Assembly: GCF_002854065.1 (NCBI RefSeq)
Contig: NZ_CP024147.1
DNA: 64,000 nt
Strand: one strand, 5' to 3'
Source of the DNA: Escherichia coli
Lineage (GTDB): Bacteria > Pseudomonadota > Gammaproteobacteria > Enterobacterales > Enterobacteriaceae
Positions 1 through 63,846 of this stretch are shown in pieces; the first letter of the stretch is position 1, and every line of letters starts with the position of its first letter. The notes beneath the pieces are model-generated. The model did not search any database, was not told the origin of the DNA, and saw only the letters and a list, made by a program, of their open reading frames with translations. A program made the position numbers and the translations under genes.

Positions 1-746
1 GGGAAGCGCATTGGCTGGGCATCCACCACTCGCTGGATCTCCACGGTTTCCAGCACTTCGAGCAGTGTCGGACCGCTGTACCACGGCATACTTTCACTTT
101 GCGAAGCCACGTTGTCACCTTCCAGTGCGGAGAGCGGCACAAAGCGGATATCCAGATTACCCGGCAGCTGCCCGGCAAAGGTCAGATAATCTTCACGAAT
201 ACGGGTGAACGTCTCTTCACTGTAATCCACCAGATCCATTTTGTTGATCGCCACGACCAGATGTTTGATCCCCAACAGTGTGGAGATAAAACTGTGACGA
301 CGGGTTTGATCGAGCACGCCTTTACGGGCATCGATCAGTAAGATCGCCAGTTCACATGTCGATGCGCCAGTCGCCATATTGCGGGTGTACTGCTCGTGCC
401 CTGGGGTGTCGGCGATAATAAATTTACGCTTCTCGGTAGAGAAATAACGGTAAGCCACGTCAATGGTGATGCCCTGTTCGCGCTCAGCTTGCAGGCCGTC
501 CACTAGCAGTGCCAGATCCAGCTTTTCGCCCTGGGTGCCGTGACGCTTACTGTCGTTATGCAGCGATGAGAGCTGATCTTCGTAGATTTGGCGGGTATCG
601 TGCAGCAGGCGACCAATCAGGGTACTTTTGCCGTCATCGACGCTACCACAGGTCAGAAAACGCAGCAGGCTTTTATGTTGTTGCGCAATCATCCAGGCTT
701 CGACGCCGCCTTCATTGGCGATTTGTTGTGCAAGTGCGGTGTTCAT
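1..746 (-). CDS. cysN: Sulfate adenylyltransferase subunit 1 (CysN), N-terminal part; gene runs off the window start
   Basis: Reverse translation from ATG at 744-746 gives [12 protein letters not shown]...; GTPase motifs; 1 nt after cysD stop. Confidence 0.93.
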
Positions 747-747
747 C

Positions 748-1656
748 TTAAAAATACCCCTGACGTTTTTTCAGCTCCATAGACCCCGCCTGGTCGCGAT
801 CAATCACGCGGCCCTGACGTTCACTGGTGGTGGAAACCAGCATCTCTTCGATGATCTCCGGCAGTGTTTGTGCATTTGACTCCACCGCACCGGTCAGCGG
901 CCAGCAGCCCAGCGTACGGAAACGCACCATCCGTTTTTTGATCACTTCGCCCGGTTGCAGGTCGATACGGTTGTCATCAATCATCATCAACATACCGTCG
1001 CGTTCCAGAACCGGACGTTCCGCAGCGAGATACAGCGGCACAATGTCGATATTTTCCAGCCAGATGTATTGCCAGATATCCTGCTCGGTCCAGTTAGAGA
1101 GCGGGAAGACGCGGATGCTTTCGCCTTTGTTAATTTGCCCGTTGTAGTTGTGCCACAGCTCCGGGCGCTGATTTTTCGGATCCCAGCGATGGAAGCGGTC
1201 ACGGAAAGAGTAGATTCGCTCTTTAGCGCGGGATTTCTCTTCGTCACGGCGCGCACCACCGAAGGCGGCATCAAAACCGTATTTATTCAGCGCCTGTTTC
1301 AGGCCTTCAGTTTTCATAATATCGGTATGTTTCGCGCTGCCGTGCACGAATGGATTAATCCCCATCGCCACGCCTTCCGGGTTTTTATGCACCAGCAGCT
1401 CGCAGCCGTAGGCTTTCGCCGTACGATCGCGGAACTCATACATCTCGCGGAATTTCCAGCCGGTATCGACATGCAGCAACGGGAAAGGCAGCGTACCTGG
1501 ATAAAACGCCTTGCGCGCCAGATGCAGCATGACGCTGGAATCTTTACCGATAGAGTAGAGCATCACCGGATTTGAGAATTCTGCCGCCACCTCGCGAATA
1601 ATGTGGATACTTTCCGCCTCCAGTTGCCGCAGGTGAGTAAGTCGTTTTTGATCCAT
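748..1656 (-). CDS. cysD: Sulfate adenylyltransferase subunit 2 (CysD), 302 aa
   Basis: ORF translation recognised as CysD (PAPS-reductase-like fold); stop TAA 748-750 abuts cysN start. Confidence 0.95.
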
Positions 1657-1907
1657 AACCGTTCCTTTGCAATACCGCTATTTTCTTGCCATCAGATGTT
1701 TCGACTATAGGGAGCGTAAGAGAACGAATGAAATTACCAATTAGAATGAGTAGTTCCTTAACGGAATAACGATTTGGCAAAGCTAATATCAAAAAGTGCT
1801 TAAGGCACCGGATTTCGGGCGTTTAGGAAGATTTGAAATTGTTTTAGCGCAGCGGCAGTTTCATACTATGGCGGTAAAAAAATTTGCATGGTATTTAAGG
1901 ACTCACT

Positions 1908-2945
1908 ATGTTTTCCGCATTGCGCCACCGTACCGCTGCCCTGGCGCTCGGCGTATGCTTTATTCTCCCCGTACACGCCTCGTCACCTAAACCTGGCGAT
2001 TTTGCTAATACCCAGGCACGACATATTGCTACTTTCTTTCCGGGACGCATGACCGGAACTCCTGCAGAAATGTTATCTGCCGATTATATTCGCCAACAGT
2101 TTCAGCAAATGGGTTATCGCAGTGATATTCGGACATTTAATAGTCGGTATATTTATACCGCCCGCGATAATCGCAAGAGCTGGCATAACGTGACGGGAAG
2201 TACGGTGATTGCCGCTCATGAAGGCAAAGCGCCGCAGCAGATCATCATTATGGCGCATCTGGATACTTACGCCCCGCTGAGCGATGCTGACGCCGATGCC
2301 AATCTCGGCGGGCTGACGTTACAAGGAATGGATGATAACGCCGCAGGTTTAGGTGTCATGCTGGAATTGGCAGAACGCCTGAAAAATACGCCTACCGAGT
2401 ATGGTATTCGATTTGTGGCGACCAGCGGCGAAGAGGAAGGGAAATTAGGCGCTGAGAATTTACTCAAGCGGATGAGTGACACCGAAAAGAAAAATACGCT
2501 GCTGGTGATTAATCTCGATAACTTAATTGTTGGCGATAAATTGTATTTCAACAGCGGTGTAAAAACCCCTGAAGCAGTAAGGAAATTAACGCGCGACAGG
2601 GCGCTGGCAATTGCGCGTAGTCATGGAATTGCCGCAACGACCAATCCGGGTTTGAATAAAAATTATCCGAAAGGCACTGGGTGTTGTAATGACGCAGAAA
2701 TATTCGACAAAGCGGGCATTGCTGTACTTTCGGTGGAAGCGACTAACTGGAATCTTGGGAATAAGGATGGTTATCAGCAACGCGCAAAAACAGCCGCATT
2801 CCCTGCGGGAAATAGCTGGCATGACGTAAGACTGGATAATCAACAGCATATTGATAAGGCACTTCCAGGAAGAATAGAACGTCGCTGCCGTGACGTTATG
2901 CGGATAATGCTACCACTGGTGAAGGAGCTGGCGAAGGCGTCTTGA
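1908..2945 (+). CDS. iap: Alkaline phosphatase isozyme conversion aminopeptidase (Iap), 345 aa
   Basis: ORF translation MFSALRHRTAALALGVCFILPVHASS...; signal peptide; M28-type peptidase. Confidence 0.92.
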   Translation: MFSALRHRTAALALGVCFILPVHASSPKPGDFANTQARHIATFFPGRMTGTPAEMLSADYIRQQFQQMGYRSDIRTFNSRYIYTARDNRKSWHNVTGSTVIAAHEGKAPQQIIIMAHLDTYAPLSDADADANLGGLTLQGMDDNAAGLGVMLELAERLKNTPTEYGIRFVATSGEEEGKLGAENLLKRMSDTEKKNTLLVINLDNLIVGDKLYFNSGVKTPEAVRKLTRDRALAIARSHGIAATTNPGLNKNYPKGTGCCNDAEIFDKAGIAVLSVEATNWNLGNKDGYQQRAKTAAFPAGNSWHDVRLDNQQHIDKALPGRIERRCRDVMRIMLPLVKELAKAS

Positions 2946-3070
2946 TGGGTTTGAAATGATGACTCCCGTGCCTGCAGGAAATCAATGCCACCTGAAACAG
3001 AGAATAAAAAAGGGTGCAGGAGGCCAAACCATCACAATTCAATACGCGGGGTTTTACCCCCGCGTGGTGG

Positions 3071-3223
3071 CTACTTCTTCGATTCGTAAGCGAGAACTGC
3101 CTTAAACTCCATACCACGCTCTCTGATACTCAACTCACATAACGAGTCGCCTACCATGAGCGTGAATCCCAGTACTGTACAACACAGTACTATGATTGCC
3201 ACAAGGGCATATTTTGTTAGCAT
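3071..3223 (-). CDS. hokX: Hok/Gef-family membrane toxin (type I toxin-antitoxin), 50 aa
   Basis: [50 protein letters not shown]; hydrophobic helix plus SLCE...AYES motif typical of Hok; GGAGG Shine-Dalgarno (rc of 3229-3233) 6 nt upstream of ATG 3221-3223. Confidence 0.75.
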
Positions 3224-3330
3224 GTCTTGCCTCCCTGCAAAGAAGAGACTAACATCCGAATTGCTACGTTCGAACGCGAGCCTCAGGTTGATAGAAATAT
3301 CGCCTGGGGCTTTTGTCCATCTGGAACCTC
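3224..3330 (+). ncRNA. sokX: Putative Sok-type antisense RNA opposite the hok mRNA leader (coordinates approximate)
   Basis: Expected from hok/sok locus architecture; exact ends not determinable from sequence alone. Confidence 0.2.
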
Positions 3331-3430
3331 GCGAATGCTTAACGCCAGACAGCCTCAAGCACCCGACGCCATTCTATACCTGATAATTCTTCCAGCGGCG
3401 TTCACGTTTAAAATCAGGAATGCTGCTCGC

Positions 3431-3469
3431 AAAATAAAAACGCCCCCATCATTTCTGACAGAGGCGTTT
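3431..3469 (-). terminator. Intrinsic terminator downstream of cysH (end of cysJIH operon)
   Basis: On minus strand: stem AAACGCC...GGCGUUU followed by U-rich run (A-run 3431-3439 on plus strand). Confidence 0.6.
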
Positions 3470-3486
3470 AATTTATCCGGCAATAT

Positions 3487-4221
3487 TTACCCTTCGTGTA
3501 ACCCACATTCCCTTTTTAAGCCAAAGAAACGCGTTTCTTCTTCCGCCATGCCGGGTTCCCATTTACGGGTTGTATGGGTATCGCCCACCGATAAATATCC
3601 TTCGTCCCATAATGGGTGATATTTCAGGCCATGTTTTTGCAGGTACTGATAAATAGTTCGGTTATCCCAGTCGATAATCGGCAGCACTTTAAATACGCCA
3701 CGCTGAATTGCCAGCACCGGTAAATTGGCGCGGCTGCCGGATTGTTCACGGCGCAGGCCAGCAAACCAGGTTTGCGCATTCAGTTCTTTTAGCGCCCGGT
3801 TCATCGGTTCGACTTTGTTGATGTCATTGTACTTTTCAATGCCTTCAACGCCCTGTTCCCACAGTTTTCCGTAGCGTGCTTCCTGCCAGGCTGCGCTTTC
3901 GGTAGCACGGTACACTTTCAGGTTGAGCTTGAGTTTGTCCGTTAACTCGTCAATAAAGCGGTAGGTTTCCGGGAACAAGTAACCGGTATCGGTGAGGATC
4001 ACTGGAATATCCGGGCGAATCTGATTCACCAGATGCAGGCTCACCGCCGCCTGAATGCCGAAGCTGGAAGAAAGCACATATTCACCGGGCAGATTATCCA
4101 GCGCCCAGGCTACGCGGCCTTCAGCGTCCAGTTTTTCCAGTTGGGCGTTAGTTTCCGCCAGCGCCAGAATGCGATCTACCTTCGGCAGTTCGTTCAGGGC
4201 GTTTAGATCGAGTTTGGACAT
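3487..4221 (-). CDS. cysH: Phosphoadenosine phosphosulfate (PAPS) reductase CysH, 244 aa
   Basis: Translation from [14 protein letters not shown]...; C-terminal ECGLH motif; ORF-track upstream extension judged non-coding. Confidence 0.93.
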
Positions 4222-4239
4222 AGATTCCTCACTGTTTGC

Positions 4240-4282
4240 CTTGCCTGATGCGACGCTCACGCGTCTTATCAGGCCTACAAGA
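4240..4282. repeat. REP (repetitive extragenic palindromic) element between cysI and cysH
   Basis: GCCTGATGCGACGCT...GCGTCTTATCAGGCCTACA palindromic unit. Confidence 0.7.
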
Positions 4283-4294
4283 CCGGGCTGATGG

Positions 4295-6007
4295 TTAATC
4301 CCACAAATCGCGCGCCGGATCGAGCACCGGGCGAATGATGCCCGCACGCACCGTAAAGTCGCCGAAGCCTTCACCCGCTTCGCGCTCTTTCGCCCAGCGC
4401 CCTATCAGTTCATCAAGCGACGCCAGGATTTCCGGCTCGGTGATGTTTTCTTTATACATCCGTGGGATACGTGTCCCAATGCGGTTGCCGCCAAGATGCA
4501 GGTTGTAGCGACCCGGCGCTTTACCCACCAGGCCCACTTCCGCCAGCATCGCGCGACCACAACCGTTCGGGCAGCCTGTTACACGCATCACGATATGCTC
4601 ATCGCTGACACCATGTTTCGCCATTAAATTATCGATGTTGTCGATAAAAGACGGCAGGAAACGCTCCGCTTCCGCCATCGCCAGCGGGCAAGTCGGGAAT
4701 GACACGCAGGCCATTGAGTTTTCACGCTGCGGCGTGACGGCATTCATTAACCCGCTCTCTTTGGCGATCCTCTCGATCTTCGCTTTCTCACTTTCCGGCA
4801 CACCGGCGATGATCAGATTCTGGTTCGCCGTAATGCGGAAATCACCTTTGTGGATCTTTGCGATCTCCAGCAGGCCGGTTTTCAGCGGACGCCCCGGATA
4901 ATCAAGGATGCGACCATTTTCGATAAACAGCGTCAGGTGCCAGTTATCATCAATGCCCTTAACCCAGCCAATACGATCTCCGCGTCCGGTAAACTCATAC
5001 GGGCGAATCGGCTCGAATTTGATCCCCGCGCGACGTTCCACTTCCGCTTTAAATGTCTCAACACCCACGCGCTCCAGCGTGTATTTGGTTTTGGCATTTT
5101 TACGATCGGTACGGTTACCCCAATCGCGCTGAGTCGTCACGACGGCTTCCGCCACCGCCAGGGTATGCTCCAGCGGCAGATAACCAAACTCGCTCGCCGT
5201 GCGGGCGTAGGTTTTCTTATTACCGTGTTCGATGGAAAGCCCGCCGCCCACCAGCAGGTTAAAGCCTACCAGCTTGCCGTTTTCGGCGATTGCCACGAAG
5301 TTCATGTCGTTGGCGTGCAGATCGATATCGTTCTGTGGCGGGATCACTACCGTGGTTTTGAATTTACGCGGCAGGTAGGTCTGGCCGAGGATCGGTTCTT
5401 CATCAGTGGTGGCGACTTTTTCCTGATCGAGCCAGATCTCCGCATACGCGCGGGTACGCGGCAGCAGATGTTCCGAGATTTTCTTCGCCCACTCGTACGC
5501 TTCTGCGTGCAGCTGCGACTCGTAAGGGTTCGAGGTGCAGAGTACGTTACGGTTCATGTCGTTAGCGGTCGCCAGCGCATCAAGACCGACCGAGTGCAGC
5601 ATCTGGTGCACCGGTTTGACGTTCTTTTTCAGAATGCCGTGGAACTGGAATGTCTGGCGGTTGGTCAGGCGAATGCTGCCATAGATGGTGTTTTCACCGG
5701 CAAATTTATCGATCGCCTGCCACTGTTTGGTGGTGATAACTCCACCCGGCAGACGGCAGCGCAACAGCATCGCATGGCGCGGCTCCAGCTTCTGTTCAGC
5801 ACGTTCGGCGCGGATGTCGCGGTCATCCTGCTGATACATGCCGTGGAAGCGGATCAGCAGGAAGTTGTCGCCCTTAAAGCCGCCGGTCAGACCGTCGTTT
5901 AAATCTTCCGCAATGGTGCCGCGCAGGTAGTTGCTTTCAAGCTTCATGCGCTCGGCGTCTGTCAGTTTTCCTTCGACCACTAAAGGCCCTGGATGTTTTT
6001 CGCTCAT
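4295..6007 (-). CDS. cysI: Sulfite reductase hemoprotein beta subunit CysI, 570 aa
   Basis: ORF translation; siroheme/4Fe-4S Cys cluster CPNGC near C-terminus. Confidence 0.95.
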
Positions 6008-17803: not shown

Positions 17804-19282
17804 ATGTCGAAGAAATACATCATAGGGATTGATGGCGGAAGTCAGAGCACAAAAGTGGTGATGTACGATCTGGAAGGTAACGTGGTTTGCGAAGGCAAAG
17901 GTTTATTGCAGCCGATGCACACGCCAGATGCCGATACCGCAGAACATCCTGACGACGATTTATGGGCATCATTATGTTTTGCCGGTCACGATTTGATGAG
18001 TCAGTTTGCCGGGAATAAAGAAGATATTGTCGGTATTGGTCTGGGATCCATCCGTTGCTGCCGTGCGTTATTGAAAGCCGATGGCACGCCTGCTGCGCCG
18101 TTGATTAGCTGGCAGGATGCACGCGTAACGCGTCCCTACGAACACACTAATCCTGACGTGGCCTATGTCACCTCTTTTTCGGGTTATCTGACGCATCGCT
18201 TAACCGGCGAGTTTAAAGACAATATCGCCAACTATTTTGGTCAGTGGCCGGTGGATTATAAGACCTGGGCATGGAGTGAAGATGCTGCGGTAATGGATAA
18301 GTTTAATATCCCCCGTCATATGCTGTTTGATGTGCAAATGCCTGGCACCGTCCTCGGACATATCACACCACAAGCCGCACTGGCGACACATTTCCCGGCA
18401 GGACTGCCGGTTGTTTGTACCACCAGTGATAAACCGGTAGAAGCTCTGGGGGCCGGATTACTGGATGATGAAACGGCGGTAATTTCTCTTGGCACCTACA
18501 TCGCGCTGATGATGAACGGCAAAGCACTGCCGAAAGATCCGGTGGCGTACTGGCCGATTATGTCTTCTATTCCGCAAACATTGCTGTATGAAGGTTACGG
18601 TATCCGTAAAGGCATGTGGACGGTGAGCTGGCTGCGCGACATGCTAGGCGAGTCGTTAATTCAGGATGCCAGGGCGCAGGATCTTTCACCGGAAGATTTA
18701 CTCAACAAAAAAGCTTCTTGTGTGCCGCCAGACTGTAATGGTCTGATGACGGTGCTGGACTGGCTGACCAATCCGTGGGAACCGTACAAACGCGGGATTA
18801 TGATCGGCTTTGATTCCAGCATGGATTACGCATGGATATATCGTTCGATACTGGAAAGCGTGGCGCTGACGCTGAAGAACAATTACGACAATATGTGTAA
18901 TGAAATGAATCACTTTGCGAAGCATGTGATCATTACTGGCGGCGGTTCGAACAGCGATCTGTTTATGCAGATTTTTGCCGACGTGTTCAACCTTCCGGCA
19001 CGACGTAACGCCATTAACGGTTGTGCAAGTCTGGGGGCAGCGATTAATACCGCGGTAGGTCTGGGGCTATACCCGGATTACGCAACGGCTGTCGATAAAA
19101 TGGTTCGCGTGAAAGATATCTTTATACCGATTGAGAGCAATGCCAAACGCTACGACGCGATGAATAAAGGCATTTTCAAAGACCTAACCAAACATACTGA
19201 TGTGATTCTGAAAAAATCGTATGAAGTGATGCATGGGGAATTGGGAAATGCGGATTCGATCCAGAGCTGGTCGAATGCGTAA
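17804..19282 (+). CDS. ygcE: FGGY-family carbohydrate kinase, 492 aa
   Basis: ORF translation; N-terminal IGIDGGSQSTK sugar-kinase motif. Confidence 0.9.
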   Translation: MSKKYIIGIDGGSQSTKVVMYDLEGNVVCEGKGLLQPMHTPDADTAEHPDDDLWASLCFAGHDLMSQFAGNKEDIVGIGLGSIRCCRALLKADGTPAAPLISWQDARVTRPYEHTNPDVAYVTSFSGYLTHRLTGEFKDNIANYFGQWPVDYKTWAWSEDAAVMDKFNIPRHMLFDVQMPGTVLGHITPQAALATHFPAGLPVVCTTSDKPVEALGAGLLDDETAVISLGTYIALMMNGKALPKDPVAYWPIMSSIPQTLLYEGYGIRKGMWTVSWLRDMLGESLIQDARAQDLSPEDLLNKKASCVPPDCNGLMTVLDWLTNPWEPYKRGIMIGFDSSMDYAWIYRSILESVALTLKNNYDNMCNEMNHFAKHVIITGGGSNSDLFMQIFADVFNLPARRNAINGCASLGAAINTAVGLGLYPDYATAVDKMVRVKDIFIPIESNAKRYDAMNKGIFKDLTKHTDVILKKSYEVMHGELGNADSIQSWSNA

Positions 19283-19328
19283 GTGAGGAAGGCCGGGCGG
19301 GAAACAGCACGGCCTGAACATACCTGAA

Positions 19329-19357
19329 TGGTTATCCCCGCTGACGCGGGGAACTCT
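19329..19357 (-). CRISPR. Solitary degenerate type I-E CRISPR repeat; AT-rich leader-like sequence follows at about 19358-19500
   Basis: rc of TGGTTATCCCCGCTGACGCGGGGAACTC is GAGTTCCCCGCGTCAGCGGGGATAACCA, versus I-E consensus GAGTTCCCCGCGCCAGCGGGGATAAACCG: 2 mismatches and 1 deletion; no second repeat found. Confidence 0.6.
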
Positions 19358-19694
19358 CTAAACATAACCTATTATTAATTAATGATTTTTTAAGCCAGTC
19401 ACAATCTACCAACTTTACAGTATCACACAAACAACACATCCATCATGTTAAAGAGCACTTAACCCATTGATTAAAAAGGTAAATATTTAAAATAACTCTA
19501 TACAAACTAAAATCTACCAAACTTTACCGCAATAATTTTCACTCCAGCGAAAAATTAACGCCACAGAATTTGTAGAGAATGATAATGATTAGTTCAGGAT
19601 GGGCAAAATGGAGGTTTTTCAGAGACGACAAAGAATATAAATGAGTAGAAGTCTTTACAGGTTCCACCCATTTATAACGCTTATAAATGTTTAA

Positions 19695-20366
19695 TCAGGC
19701 AATATTTAAATATTTATGGGTTTGCATCGACAAACGCCAATTACGCGCAATGCAGGTTTCAATGCACAAACGTGTGGCATCATCCTTTTGGCTAATCGGC
19801 TGCAGTGCAATGACTCGCGGTTTATCATCGGTCAGCGTCGCCAAAAGTTCATCCAGTGCTTCAATATCACGTACGCGTCCCACTGGATGCTTGATTTCGT
19901 TGGCTCGCTCCAGTGCCTGTGACAACACTTCATAGCCGCCGCGCATGTTCAGCTTTGGCGATACGGTAACCCAGGTATTCGGTGTACAGCGTACTTCATG
20001 AGTACCACTGGTTTCGATCTGGCAGCTAAAACCGTTCTTTTCGAGCAGGTCAGTCAGTGGTAGCAAATCATGAATGCAAGGCTCACCACCCGTAATCACC
20101 ACATGCCGCGCGGTGTATCCCTGGCGACCAATGACAGCCAGCAAGTCTTCACTGCTCGCCGCCCCCCACTTATCACTCTCTTTGGTCTTCGCCAGAATGC
20201 TGAAAAGGGAGACTTCCCGATCCTCAAGCTTTTCCCAGGTGTGTTTGGTGTCGCACCAGGCACAGCCAACCGGGCATCCCTGTAAACGAATAAAAATGGC
20301 GGGGACGCCGGTAAAGTAACCCTCACCTTGCAGGGTCTGGAACATCTCGTTAATCGGGTACTGCAT
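19695..20366 (-). CDS. queE: 7-carboxy-7-deazaguanine synthase QueE (radical SAM), 223 aa
   Basis: ORF translation; CPVGCAWCDT radical-SAM-like cysteine motif. Confidence 0.93.
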   Translation of the reverse strand: MQYPINEMFQTLQGEGYFTGVPAIFIRLQGCPVGCAWCDTKHTWEKLEDREVSLFSILAKTKESDKWGAASSEDLLAVIGRQGYTARHVVITGGEPCIHDLLPLTDLLEKNGFSCQIETSGTHEVRCTPNTWVTVSPKLNMRGGYEVLSQALERANEIKHPVGRVRDIEALDELLATLTDDKPRVIALQPISQKDDATRLCIETCIARNWRLSMQTHKYLNIA

Positions 20367-20520: not shown

Positions 20521-20692
20521 ATGAAAAAGGATTTAAACATGCTCAGGATATTCATCGTAATTATATTTATTTTCAATTTATCAGGCTGTGGATATAACGA
20601 TATTCAAACCTATGATGAGCAGGTTAACGCCTCCTGGTCTGAGGTATTAAATCAATATCAACGTCGCGCCGATCTTATTCCTAATCTTGTCG
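20521..20692 (+). pseudogene. lemA: LemA-family lipoprotein gene truncated after about 57 codons by IS1
   Basis: MKKDLNMLRIFIVIIFIFNLSGCGYNDIQTYDEQVNASWSEVLNQYQRRADLIPNLV then IS1 end; lipobox LSGC. Confidence 0.7.
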
Positions 20693-20747
20693 GGTGATGC
20701 TGCCAACTTACTGATTTAGTGTATGATGGTGTTTTTGAGGTGCTCCA

Positions 20748-21023
20748 GTGGCTTCTGTTTCTATCAGCTGTCCCTCCTGTTCAGCTACTGACGGGGTGGT
20801 GCGTAACGGCAAAAGCACTGCCGGACATCAGCGCTATCTCTGCTCTCACTGCCGTAAAACATGGCAACTGCAGTTCACTTACACCGCTTCTCAACCCGGT
20901 ACGCACCAGAAAATCATTGATATGGCCATGAATGGCGTTGGATGCCGGGCAACCGCCCGCATTATGGGCGTTGGCCTCAACACGATTTTCCGCCATTTAA
21001 AAAACTCAGGCCGCAGTCGGTAA
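20748..21023 (+). CDS. insA: IS1 InsA, 91 aa
   Basis: [43 protein letters not shown]... Confidence 0.95.
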
Positions 21024-21445
21024 CCTCGCGCATACAGCCGGGCAGTGACGTCATCGTCTGCGCGGAAATGGACGAACAGTGGGGATACGTCGGGGCTAAA
21101 TCGCGCCAGCGCTGGCTGTTTTACGCGTATGACAGGCTCCGGAAGACGGTTGTTGCGCACGTATTCGGTGAACGCACTATGGCGACGCTGGGGCGTCTTA
21201 TGAGCCTGCTGTCACCCTTTGACGTGGTGATATGGATGACGGATGGCTGGCCGCTGTATGAATCCCGCCTGAAGGGAAAGCTGCACGTAATCAGCAAGCG
21301 ATATACGCAGCGAATTGAGCGGCATAACCTGAATCTGAGGCAGCACCTGGCACGGCTGGGACGGAAGTCGCTGTCGTTCTCAAAATCGGTGGAGCTGCAT
21401 GACAAAGTCATCGGGCATTATCTGAACATAAAACACTATCAATAA
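20942..21445 (+). CDS. insB: IS1 InsB frame (expressed as InsAB' by -1 frameshift at the TTTAAAAAAC motif)
   Basis: 167-aa InsB translation; slippery A-run near 21000. Confidence 0.9.
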
Positions 21446-21462
21446 GTTGGAGTCATTACCTG

Positions 21463-40317: not shown

Positions 40318-40686
40318 AATAAAAAAAGGGAGCACTGTATTCACAGTGCTCCCGGTTCGTTTCGCAGCATTCCAGCTACATTTGTTGCTCCCTGCTCATC
40401 CTTGACAACTTTTCCTCTGGCCTTGCGGCCAATCGTTCATCCTGAACTATTGCTTCCTGCTCACACCACCCCGATGTGATACTTCATCCTGAAGTGTCCC
40501 TGGCCTTCCTGACCCACCGAATCATCCTGACCGGTTCTCATTCTCCATCCTGGAGGTGTCCTTTAACGCGTCCTGCGTCATCCTCTTCGCTTCATCCAGA
40601 AGCCTTTCCCTGAAACACCATCCTGGTGTGTCCTTCAGAAGTGTCATCATCCTGATGTTCACTTCGTTGTCTGACTCCCTGTCGAC
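40318..40686 (-). ncRNA. csrB: CsrB small RNA (CsrA-sequestering), about 369 nt
   Basis: Minus strand starts GUCGACAGGGAGUCAGACAACG..., carries well over a dozen CAGGA(U/A)G-type GGA motifs (seen as CATCCTG on plus strand), ends in hairpin plus U-run at 40321-40358. Confidence 0.92.
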
Positions 40687-58857: not shown

Positions 58858-59063
58858 ACTTCCTGAGCCGGAACGAAAAGTTTTATCGGAATGCGTGTTC
58901 TGGTGAACTTTTGGCTTACGGTTGTGATGTTGTGTTGTTGTGTTTGCAATTGGTCTGCGATTCAGACCATGGTAGCAAAGCTACCTTTTTTCACTTCCTG
59001 TACATTTACCCTGTCTGTCCATAGTGATTAATGTAGCACCGCCTAATTGCGGTGCTTTTTTTT
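58858..59063 (+). ncRNA. gcvB: GcvB small RNA, about 206 nt
   Basis: ACTTCCTGAGCCGGAACGAAAAGTTTTATCGGAATGCGTGTTCTGGTGAACTTTTGG... with GU-rich TGTTGTGTTGTTGTGTTTG tract and terminator GCACCGCCTAATTGCGGTGC plus T8; divergent from gcvA. Confidence 0.92.
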
Positions 59064-62056: not shown

Positions 62057-62156
62057 TGCCTGATGCGCTACGCTTATCAGGCCTACATAACTCCTGCAAT
62101 ATTTTGGATTTGCATGATTTGTAGGCCGGATAAGGCGTTCACGCCGCATCCGGCAT
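62057..62156. repeat. Pair of REP elements (BIME-like) between tcdA and mltA
   Basis: GCCTGATGCGCTACGCTTATCAGGCCTACA and TGTAGGCCGGATAAGGCGTTCACGCCGCATCCGGCA. Confidence 0.75.
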
Positions 62157-63548: not shown

Positions 63549-63625
<77 letters not shown>

Positions 63626-63658
63626 ATTAAAATTTGATGAAGTAAAGCAGTACGGTGA

Positions 63659-63735
<77 letters not shown>

Positions 63736-63769
63736 ATCAAAATTTGATGAAGTAAAAGCAGTACGGTGA

Positions 63770-63846
<77 letters not shown>

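Follow-up and report, generated by a model that had tools for sequence, protein, structure and literature searches.

The region between ygcE and queE in the analysed Escherichia coli DNA (one stretch of 64,000 nucleotides, called the window below) is very probably the CRISPR-II locus of this species, that is CRISPR2.2/2.3 together with leader 2.3, in the state that is left after its repeats have collapsed. Both the locus and this kind of remnant have already been described, and the present example is an ordinary case.

Identity of the locus

The interval 19283-19694 extends exactly from the stop codon of ygcE (19280-19282, plus strand) to the stop of queE (19695, minus strand). The following features were recognized in and around it.

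17804..19282, plus strand: ygcE, FGGY-family carbohydrate kinase, left boundary gene (open reading frame; annotated in the 99.96% identical strain 100416)
19291..19314, plus strand: GC-rich hairpin just 3' of ygcE (GGCCGGGC..GCACGGCC), outside the CRISPR remnant (sequence, K-12 comparison, alignment, fold)
19329..19356, minus strand: the sole type I-E repeat, chimeric; minus strand GAGTTCCCCGCGTCAGCGGGGATAACCA, plus strand tGGTTATCCCCGCTGACGCGGGGAACTC (compared with K-12, ATCC 25922 and strain 100181, and in a multiple alignment)
19357..19694, minus strand: the whole leader 2.3 / queE-downstream spacer, 338 bp, 30.5% GC vs 50.9% for the window
19357..19416, minus strand: leader core, -1 to -60, 60/60 identical to K-12 and to BL21 NC_012947.1
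19417..19422, minus strand: counterpart of the -10 hexamer, -61 to -66, TACTGT (TACTAT in K-12/BL21; A>G at -62)
19695..20366, minus strand: queE (formerly ygcF), right boundary gene (open reading frame; annotation via the 99.96% identical genome), codirectional with the CRISPR remnant

The remnant occupies the ygcE-queE (ygcF) intergenic position of CRISPR-II, it carries a type-2 (I-E) repeat in which both of the inverted repeats CCCCGCG/GCGGGG are intact, and leader 2.3 directly abuts this first repeat. A CRISPR array in the strict sense has at least two direct repeats and a spacer of ~32 bp; with its single repeat the locus is an array remnant. Since CRISPR finders need at least two repeats, they would list it as empty in spite of the recognisable CRISPR-II remnant. 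The importance of the locus beyond correct annotation is small.

A 512-bp query spanning the locus found matches in 5,418 of the 5,426 complete E. coli genomes, and in most of the matched genomes window positions 19332-19744 were ~96% identical to the stretch between an annotated CRISPR array and queE. The assignment to CRISPR-II follows from the ygcE and queE flanks and from this match beside annotated arrays in thousands of genomes. The first-pass annotation of this DNA had read the region as a ygcE-queE CRISPR locus cut down to a leader and one repeat, a reading with which the flanks and the array-bearing relatives agree.

Compared with CRISPR-II as described (CRISPR2.2, CRISPR2.3 or a fused CRISPR2.2-3 with leader 2.3; Almendros et al. 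2014, PMC3903273; Garcia-Gutierrez et al. 2015, PMC4489801), the flanks, the terminal degenerate repeat and the leader are the same, and the leader is 96% identical overall and 100% identical over its first 61 bp. The window differs by having one repeat and zero spacers, and by the loss of the CRISPR2.2 remnant and of the AT-rich segment of ~0.47-0.5 kb which are present in K-12 and strain 100181. The same two papers describe that strains without cas-E retain leader 2.3, with reduced repeat numbers (PMC3903273, PMC4489801). A literature search on CRISPR2 in phylogroup B2 found nothing.

The single repeat

The minus strand, on which the repeat is read, is the transcribed orientation of CRISPR-II in E. 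coli. Relative to the I-E consensus GAGTTCCCCGCGCCAGCGGGGATAAACCG the repeat carries C13>T, the deletion of one A in the ATAAACC run and a terminal G>A, which are the same two mismatches and one deletion that had been noticed in the first pass; the repeat does lie where it had been placed behind the ygcE stop, at a measured distance of 46 bp instead of 45. Its 20-nt core TTCCCCGCGNCAGCGGGGAT has one match in the window against 0.02 expected, and gapped local alignment to the consensus scored 23 at the repeat and at best 13 elsewhere in the 64 kb. A chance match was excluded on the basis of this core count and of the gap between the alignment scores.

Searching the 64-kb window with the ungapped 29-nt consensus and up to three mismatches gave no match and missed even the repeat itself, because the 1-nt deletion shifts the register. 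No second repeat was detected in the 64 kb by the ungapped consensus, core pattern or gapped local alignment scans, so that the earlier statement that there is no second repeat or spacer also withstood a careful gapped search. In the Rfam comparison of 19200-19800 (E<=10) neither CRISPR-DR nor another family was recovered; the sole match, STnc420 with E=5.6, is attributable to chance.

Origin of the chimeric repeat

In K-12 (RP437) the ygcE stop is followed by the same 46-bp flank, by GGTTATCCCCGCTGACGCGGGGAAC and by two more degenerate repeats (CRISPR2.2), and then by an AT-rich stretch of ~0.47 kb, a CRISPR2.3 array of seven repeats, TCTAAACATAACC... and queE. In the window the first terminal repeat joins TCTAAACATAACC directly, whereas in K-12 the arrays lie between the two. 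GGTTATCCCCGCTGACGCGGGGAAC is the degenerate terminal repeat directly behind the same ygcE flank in K-12, ATCC 25922, EC-1639 and strain 100181, and in each of these four strains a canonical repeat stands directly before TCTAAACATAACC.

The C13>T change, the 1-nt deletion and the G>A change are fixed features of this ygcE-proximal terminal repeat, not only in the four compared strains but also in most of the 4,185 genomes that were matched by a 75-bp junction probe, mostly through the ygcE flank and the terminal repeat alone, with 98-100% identity. Local erosion of the copy in the window could be ruled out, because the terminal repeats of array-bearing strains share all three changes. The repeat had been called degenerate in the first-pass annotation; the differences are real, but they are inherited features of the terminal repeat, as seen in K-12, ATCC 25922, EC-1639 and strain 100181, and not a decay of its own.

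Among the array-bearing relatives found, strain 100181 came closest, with flanks that are 98.9% identical. Its terminal repeat ...GGGGAACAT (ending in AACAT) is followed by a remnant of CRISPR2.2, by the AT-rich segment and, beside the leader, by four repeats of CRISPR2.3 that end in ...GGGGAACTC (AACTC). The repeat in the window begins as the terminal type, ...GCTGAC, continues with GCGGGGAAC and ends in TC, and it was recognized as a chimera because the terminal-type GAC is combined in it with the leader-proximal ending TC. The first 19 bp of the repeat equal the ygcE-proximal terminal repeat of most E. coli. Positions 19329-19345 derive from this terminal repeat of CRISPR2.2 and the TC at 19355-19356 from the leader-proximal repeat of CRISPR2.3, which places the crossover within the shared GCGGGGAAC (19346-19354). 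Relative to strain 100181 ~714 bp are missing.

The proposed course of events would start from an ancestor like strain 100181, in which an AT-rich stretch of ~0.47 kb separated the terminal degenerate repeat and a CRISPR2.2 remnant from a short CRISPR2.3 array and its leader. Through homologous recombination, or else through replication slippage, the terminal repeat would then have been joined to the leader-proximal one at a crossover in the shared GCGGGGAAC, with the loss of ~714 bp, so that one chimeric repeat was left fused to an unchanged leader. From the sequence comparison we infer that this deletion took place in the lineage of the window itself. The array-bearing ancestor is deduced from a relative, and the collapsed locus may instead have been acquired by recombination from another strain.

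One-repeat loci in other genomes

Repeat collapse was found to be recurrent: one-repeat CRISPR-II loci are present in about 68 of the 5,426 complete E. coli genomes (~1.2%), counted as genomes in which at least 80% of the 75-bp junction probe is covered, and the coverage is by a single aligned piece for 59 of the 60 matches listed (68 in all). Their chimeric junctions are of at least three independent kinds; GAC, GGC and GGT could be distinguished in the multiple alignment.

...GCTGAC...: the window, CUWW06, XJ34
...GCTGGC...: GF3-3
...GCTGGT...: STEC299, UPEC132, A13

The GGT form is exactly what results when the two repeats of ATCC 25922, a strain with a two-repeat orphan CRISPR-II, are fused. 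This locus and its one-repeat derivatives in UPEC132, STEC299 and A13 have the same terminal repeat as the window, and the architecture of the three derivatives is identical to that of the window; STEC299, where this was checked, also has the same cas-less iap-hok-cysH arrangement. The crossover point is different, giving a GGT chimera in the ATCC 25922 derivatives and a GAC chimera in the window, and the ATCC 25922-type leader core has substitutions at -28 and -39 whereas the core in the window is unchanged.

The natural isolate GF3-3 (NZ_CP053259.1) has a CRISPR-II with one repeat and zero spacers, although it carries the complete set of eight I-E cas genes and a CRISPR2.1 array of 640 bp. 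The assumption that one-repeat loci are confined to cas-less strains was rejected on account of this isolate, and since it keeps the full cas-E operon, the collapse is not limited to orphan loci. A natural repeat-repeat deletion which leaves a single, re-expandable repeat was predicted by Yosef et al. 2012 (PMC3384332), and the present survey is a small natural confirmation of that route.

The leader

The AT-rich leader that the first-pass annotation had seen on the queE side is present, although with 338 bp it is slightly longer than the 150-300 bp given there. Aligned with K-12, 326 of 339 positions are identical (96.2%), and the identity to ATCC 25922 is 96.7%; alignment to the ygcE-queE regions of other E. 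coli, which had been suggested as a check, thus identifies it as leader 2.3. From -1 to -61 no position differs from the leaders of K-12 and BL21, on which the experimental dissection was done. Within this conserved core lie the region of the IHF site, which falls within -35, and, at -50 to -53 (window 19406-19409), the site that anchors the integrase. Conservation of the IHF site had been another proposed check, and this region is unchanged.

The divergence of the leader from K-12 and ATCC 25922 is 3.3-3.8%. Over the comparisons made, it diverges by 3.3-5.3% and the flanking ygcE and queE DNA by 1.2-5.5%, which are similar values, and no signal of unusual conservation or decay of the leader was obtained when its divergence was compared with that of these flanks. 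The A>G exchange at -62 was considered as a lineage-specific promoter decay in an orphan locus and this was rejected, as the G allele is a common polymorphism that occurs in 1,366 of the 5,426 complete genomes, the cas-positive O157:H7 among them. Rfam gave no family match for 19357-19694, and scans of the leader for promoter and terminator consensus sequences did not rise above the shuffled expectation; the -10 position reported for BL21 was not picked out by them either.

In the ATCC 25922-type leader (extracted segment 1186-1245) the substitution at -28, one of the two in the core besides that at -39, replaces the C in the stretch that best matches the IHF consensus. Judging from this sequence change, IHF-dependent integration could have decayed in the orphan loci of the ATCC 25922 type.

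The cas genes and the iap-cysH interval

A complete type I-E system comprises cas3, cse1, cse2, cas7, cas5, cas6e, cas1 and cas2 together with CRISPR2.1 at iap-cysH, and such a system is not contained in the window. The corresponding interval has the following content.

2946..3486, no strand: iap-cysH interval without cas-E genes, CRISPR2.1 array and leader 2.1; only hok/sok is present (K-12 alignment, Rfam, annotation)
3071-3223, minus strand: hok, intact open reading frame, within the segment absent from K-12
3208-3364, minus strand: sok RNA (Rfam, 105 bits)

In the alignment with K-12, window positions 1-2956 run through iap and positions 3221-4999 from sokX into cysH, and the 9.7 kb of K-12 between them (CRISPR2.1, its leader, and cas2 to cas3) are replaced by 264 bp (2957-3220) carrying hok; K-12 retains only the sokX side of hok/sok. 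The cas genes had been noted as missing already in the first pass, and this replacement bears it out. The I-E cassette is absent from iap-cysH, its only known site in E. coli. I-E cas genes are presumably absent from the genome beyond the window as well, although cas genes elsewhere in it are conceivable. Having neither spacer nor Cas6e nor Cas1-Cas2, the locus is therefore presumably inert, a conclusion drawn from the absence of the cas cassette and CRISPR2.1, which is observed for the window and presumed for the rest of the genome.

Window positions 463-30186 are 99.96% identical to E. coli strain 100416. That strain has an IS421 element (IS4-like) inserted at window ~3049-3060 which is absent from the window, and the 12-bp overlap of the blast segments at this site is consistent with a target-site duplication.

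Predicted capacity for spacer acquisition

It had been regarded as an open question whether a one-repeat array with an intact leader could still accept spacers. This question has largely been answered, by Yosef et al. 2012 at the same locus and by Goren et al. 2016, and the Cas1-Cas2 expression experiment suggested in the first pass has essentially been carried out there. The 'array I' of BL21-AI was given as NC_012947.1 1002800-1003800 (Yosef et al. 2012, PMC3384332); these coordinates fall between queE and ygcE, and so designate the same locus as that of the window. In that study the array was shortened to a single repeat, which with plasmid-borne Cas1-Cas2 expanded by 61 bp as efficiently as the full array did, and spacer acquisition required 60 bp of leader; the -10 box was placed at -61 to -66 and its deletion did not lower acquisition (PMC3384332). 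The engineered '1-rep' array of BL21-AI (Yosef, Goren and Qimron 2012, PMC3384332) resembles the window in its locus, in 61 bp of identical leader, and in consisting of a single repeat without spacer in a host that lacks cas genes. The difference lies in the repeat, which is canonical in the '1-rep' array, whereas that of the window bears C13>T, lacks one nucleotide in its distal arm and ends in another base. The first two repeats of NC_012947.1 (BL21-Gold(DE3)pLysS AG; extracted segment 1409-1437) begin with GTG, whereas Yosef et al. give repeat 1 of BL21-AI as a GAG variant; the conclusion is unaffected by this.

The tolerance of the repeat was defined by Goren et al. 2016, who found that nothing but the inverted repeats CCCCGCG and GCGGGG is indispensable, that substitutions between or distal to them cost at most 3-fold, and that the loss of one nucleotide downstream of IR2 is mended by a ruler which recruits the next base, so that the length is restored (PMC5039180). 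The integrase anchoring site was located at -50 to -53 by Yoganand et al. 2017 (PMC5224486). A minimal I-E target thus consists of at least one correctly oriented repeat with intact IR1 and IR2, and of at least 60 bp of native leader with the IHF-site region and the integrase anchoring site, and the window contains both. All three changes in the repeat fall into the classes of Goren et al. that are tolerated or corrected by the ruler. Most likely the locus would accept spacers if I-E Cas1-Cas2 were supplied, as judged from the intact CCCCGCG/GCGGGG anchors, leader-repeat junction and 61 bp of dissected leader. The ruler mechanism would recruit the neighbouring base, and the new repeat would be 28 bp, corresponding to 19329-19356.

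The locus might instead be a dead fossil, in which the three changes in the repeat block Cas1-Cas2 or in which expansion yields non-functional crRNAs. We consider this unlikely. Three positions are indeed off the consensus, and the crRNAs of a re-grown array would bear, as predicted from the sequence, an 8-nt 5' handle of approximately AUAACCAG vs AUAAACCG after duplication of the repeat, which could impair Cascade loading or might weaken interference. Nevertheless, the inverted-repeat anchors and the leader-repeat junction are intact, the 60-bp core is that of the tested leader, and the effects reported by Goren et al. for substitutions outside the inverted repeats (at most 3-fold) and for 1-nt deletions past IR2 (length restored) also argue against a block at the integration step.

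We tentatively suggest, as a possible but doubtful reading, that the locus could serve as a standing 'landing pad' from which I-E immunity would restart from zero spacers upon horizontal re-acquisition of cas-E. This fits the perfect preservation of the 61-bp leader core and the pairing of cas-E/CRISPR2.1 with a one-repeat CRISPR-II in GF3-3. If it is true, the chimeric repeat would seed an array with an altered crRNA 5' handle. The locus could also be used for recording, as a natural site that starts without spacers; the principle has already been established.

Hairpin and assembly as alternative explanations

It is very improbable that the repeat is a non-CRISPR palindrome, a terminator or REP-like hairpin serving the convergent ygcE and queE transcripts. 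The repeat does fold into a 7-bp GC hairpin and lies between the convergent genes, but base for base it is homologous with the terminal CRISPR repeat in strains that possess arrays, a T-run is absent after it, the scan gave no terminator-like site there, and a separate hairpin (19291-19314) already sits directly after ygcE. For this separate hairpin, too, no T-run follows and the terminator scan was without a match. Two substitutions break the perfect 8-bp stem that it has in K-12 (GGCCGGGC/GCCCGGCC changed to GGCCGGGC/GCACGGCC), and strain XJ34 shows an intermediate state.

Short-read assemblies can collapse repeat arrays, and this general tendency is all that would speak for a real multi-repeat array lost by the assembler, an explanation which is hardly credible since nothing in the present data suggests it and the same 512 bp are found with 100% identity in two complete genomes that were assembled independently (Gambia, Thailand) and with 99.2% in two more, with ~60 further complete genomes having other one-repeat junctions.

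Other features of the window

On the far side of queE an IS1 element (window ~20539-21460, with the InsA/InsB open reading frames at 20748-21445) interrupts the LemA-family gene that adjoins queE. Beyond IS1 the window is without 1,928 bp that are kept in strain 100416 (extracted segment 8727-10654), and this gap looks like an IS1-adjacent deletion into TPM-domain genes. The RNA genes of the window at 40318-40677, 58858-59063, 62079-62121 and 63549-63846 are CsrB (minus strand), GcvB (plus strand), the ES036 sRNA (minus strand) and three tandem tRNA-Met (CAT), respectively.
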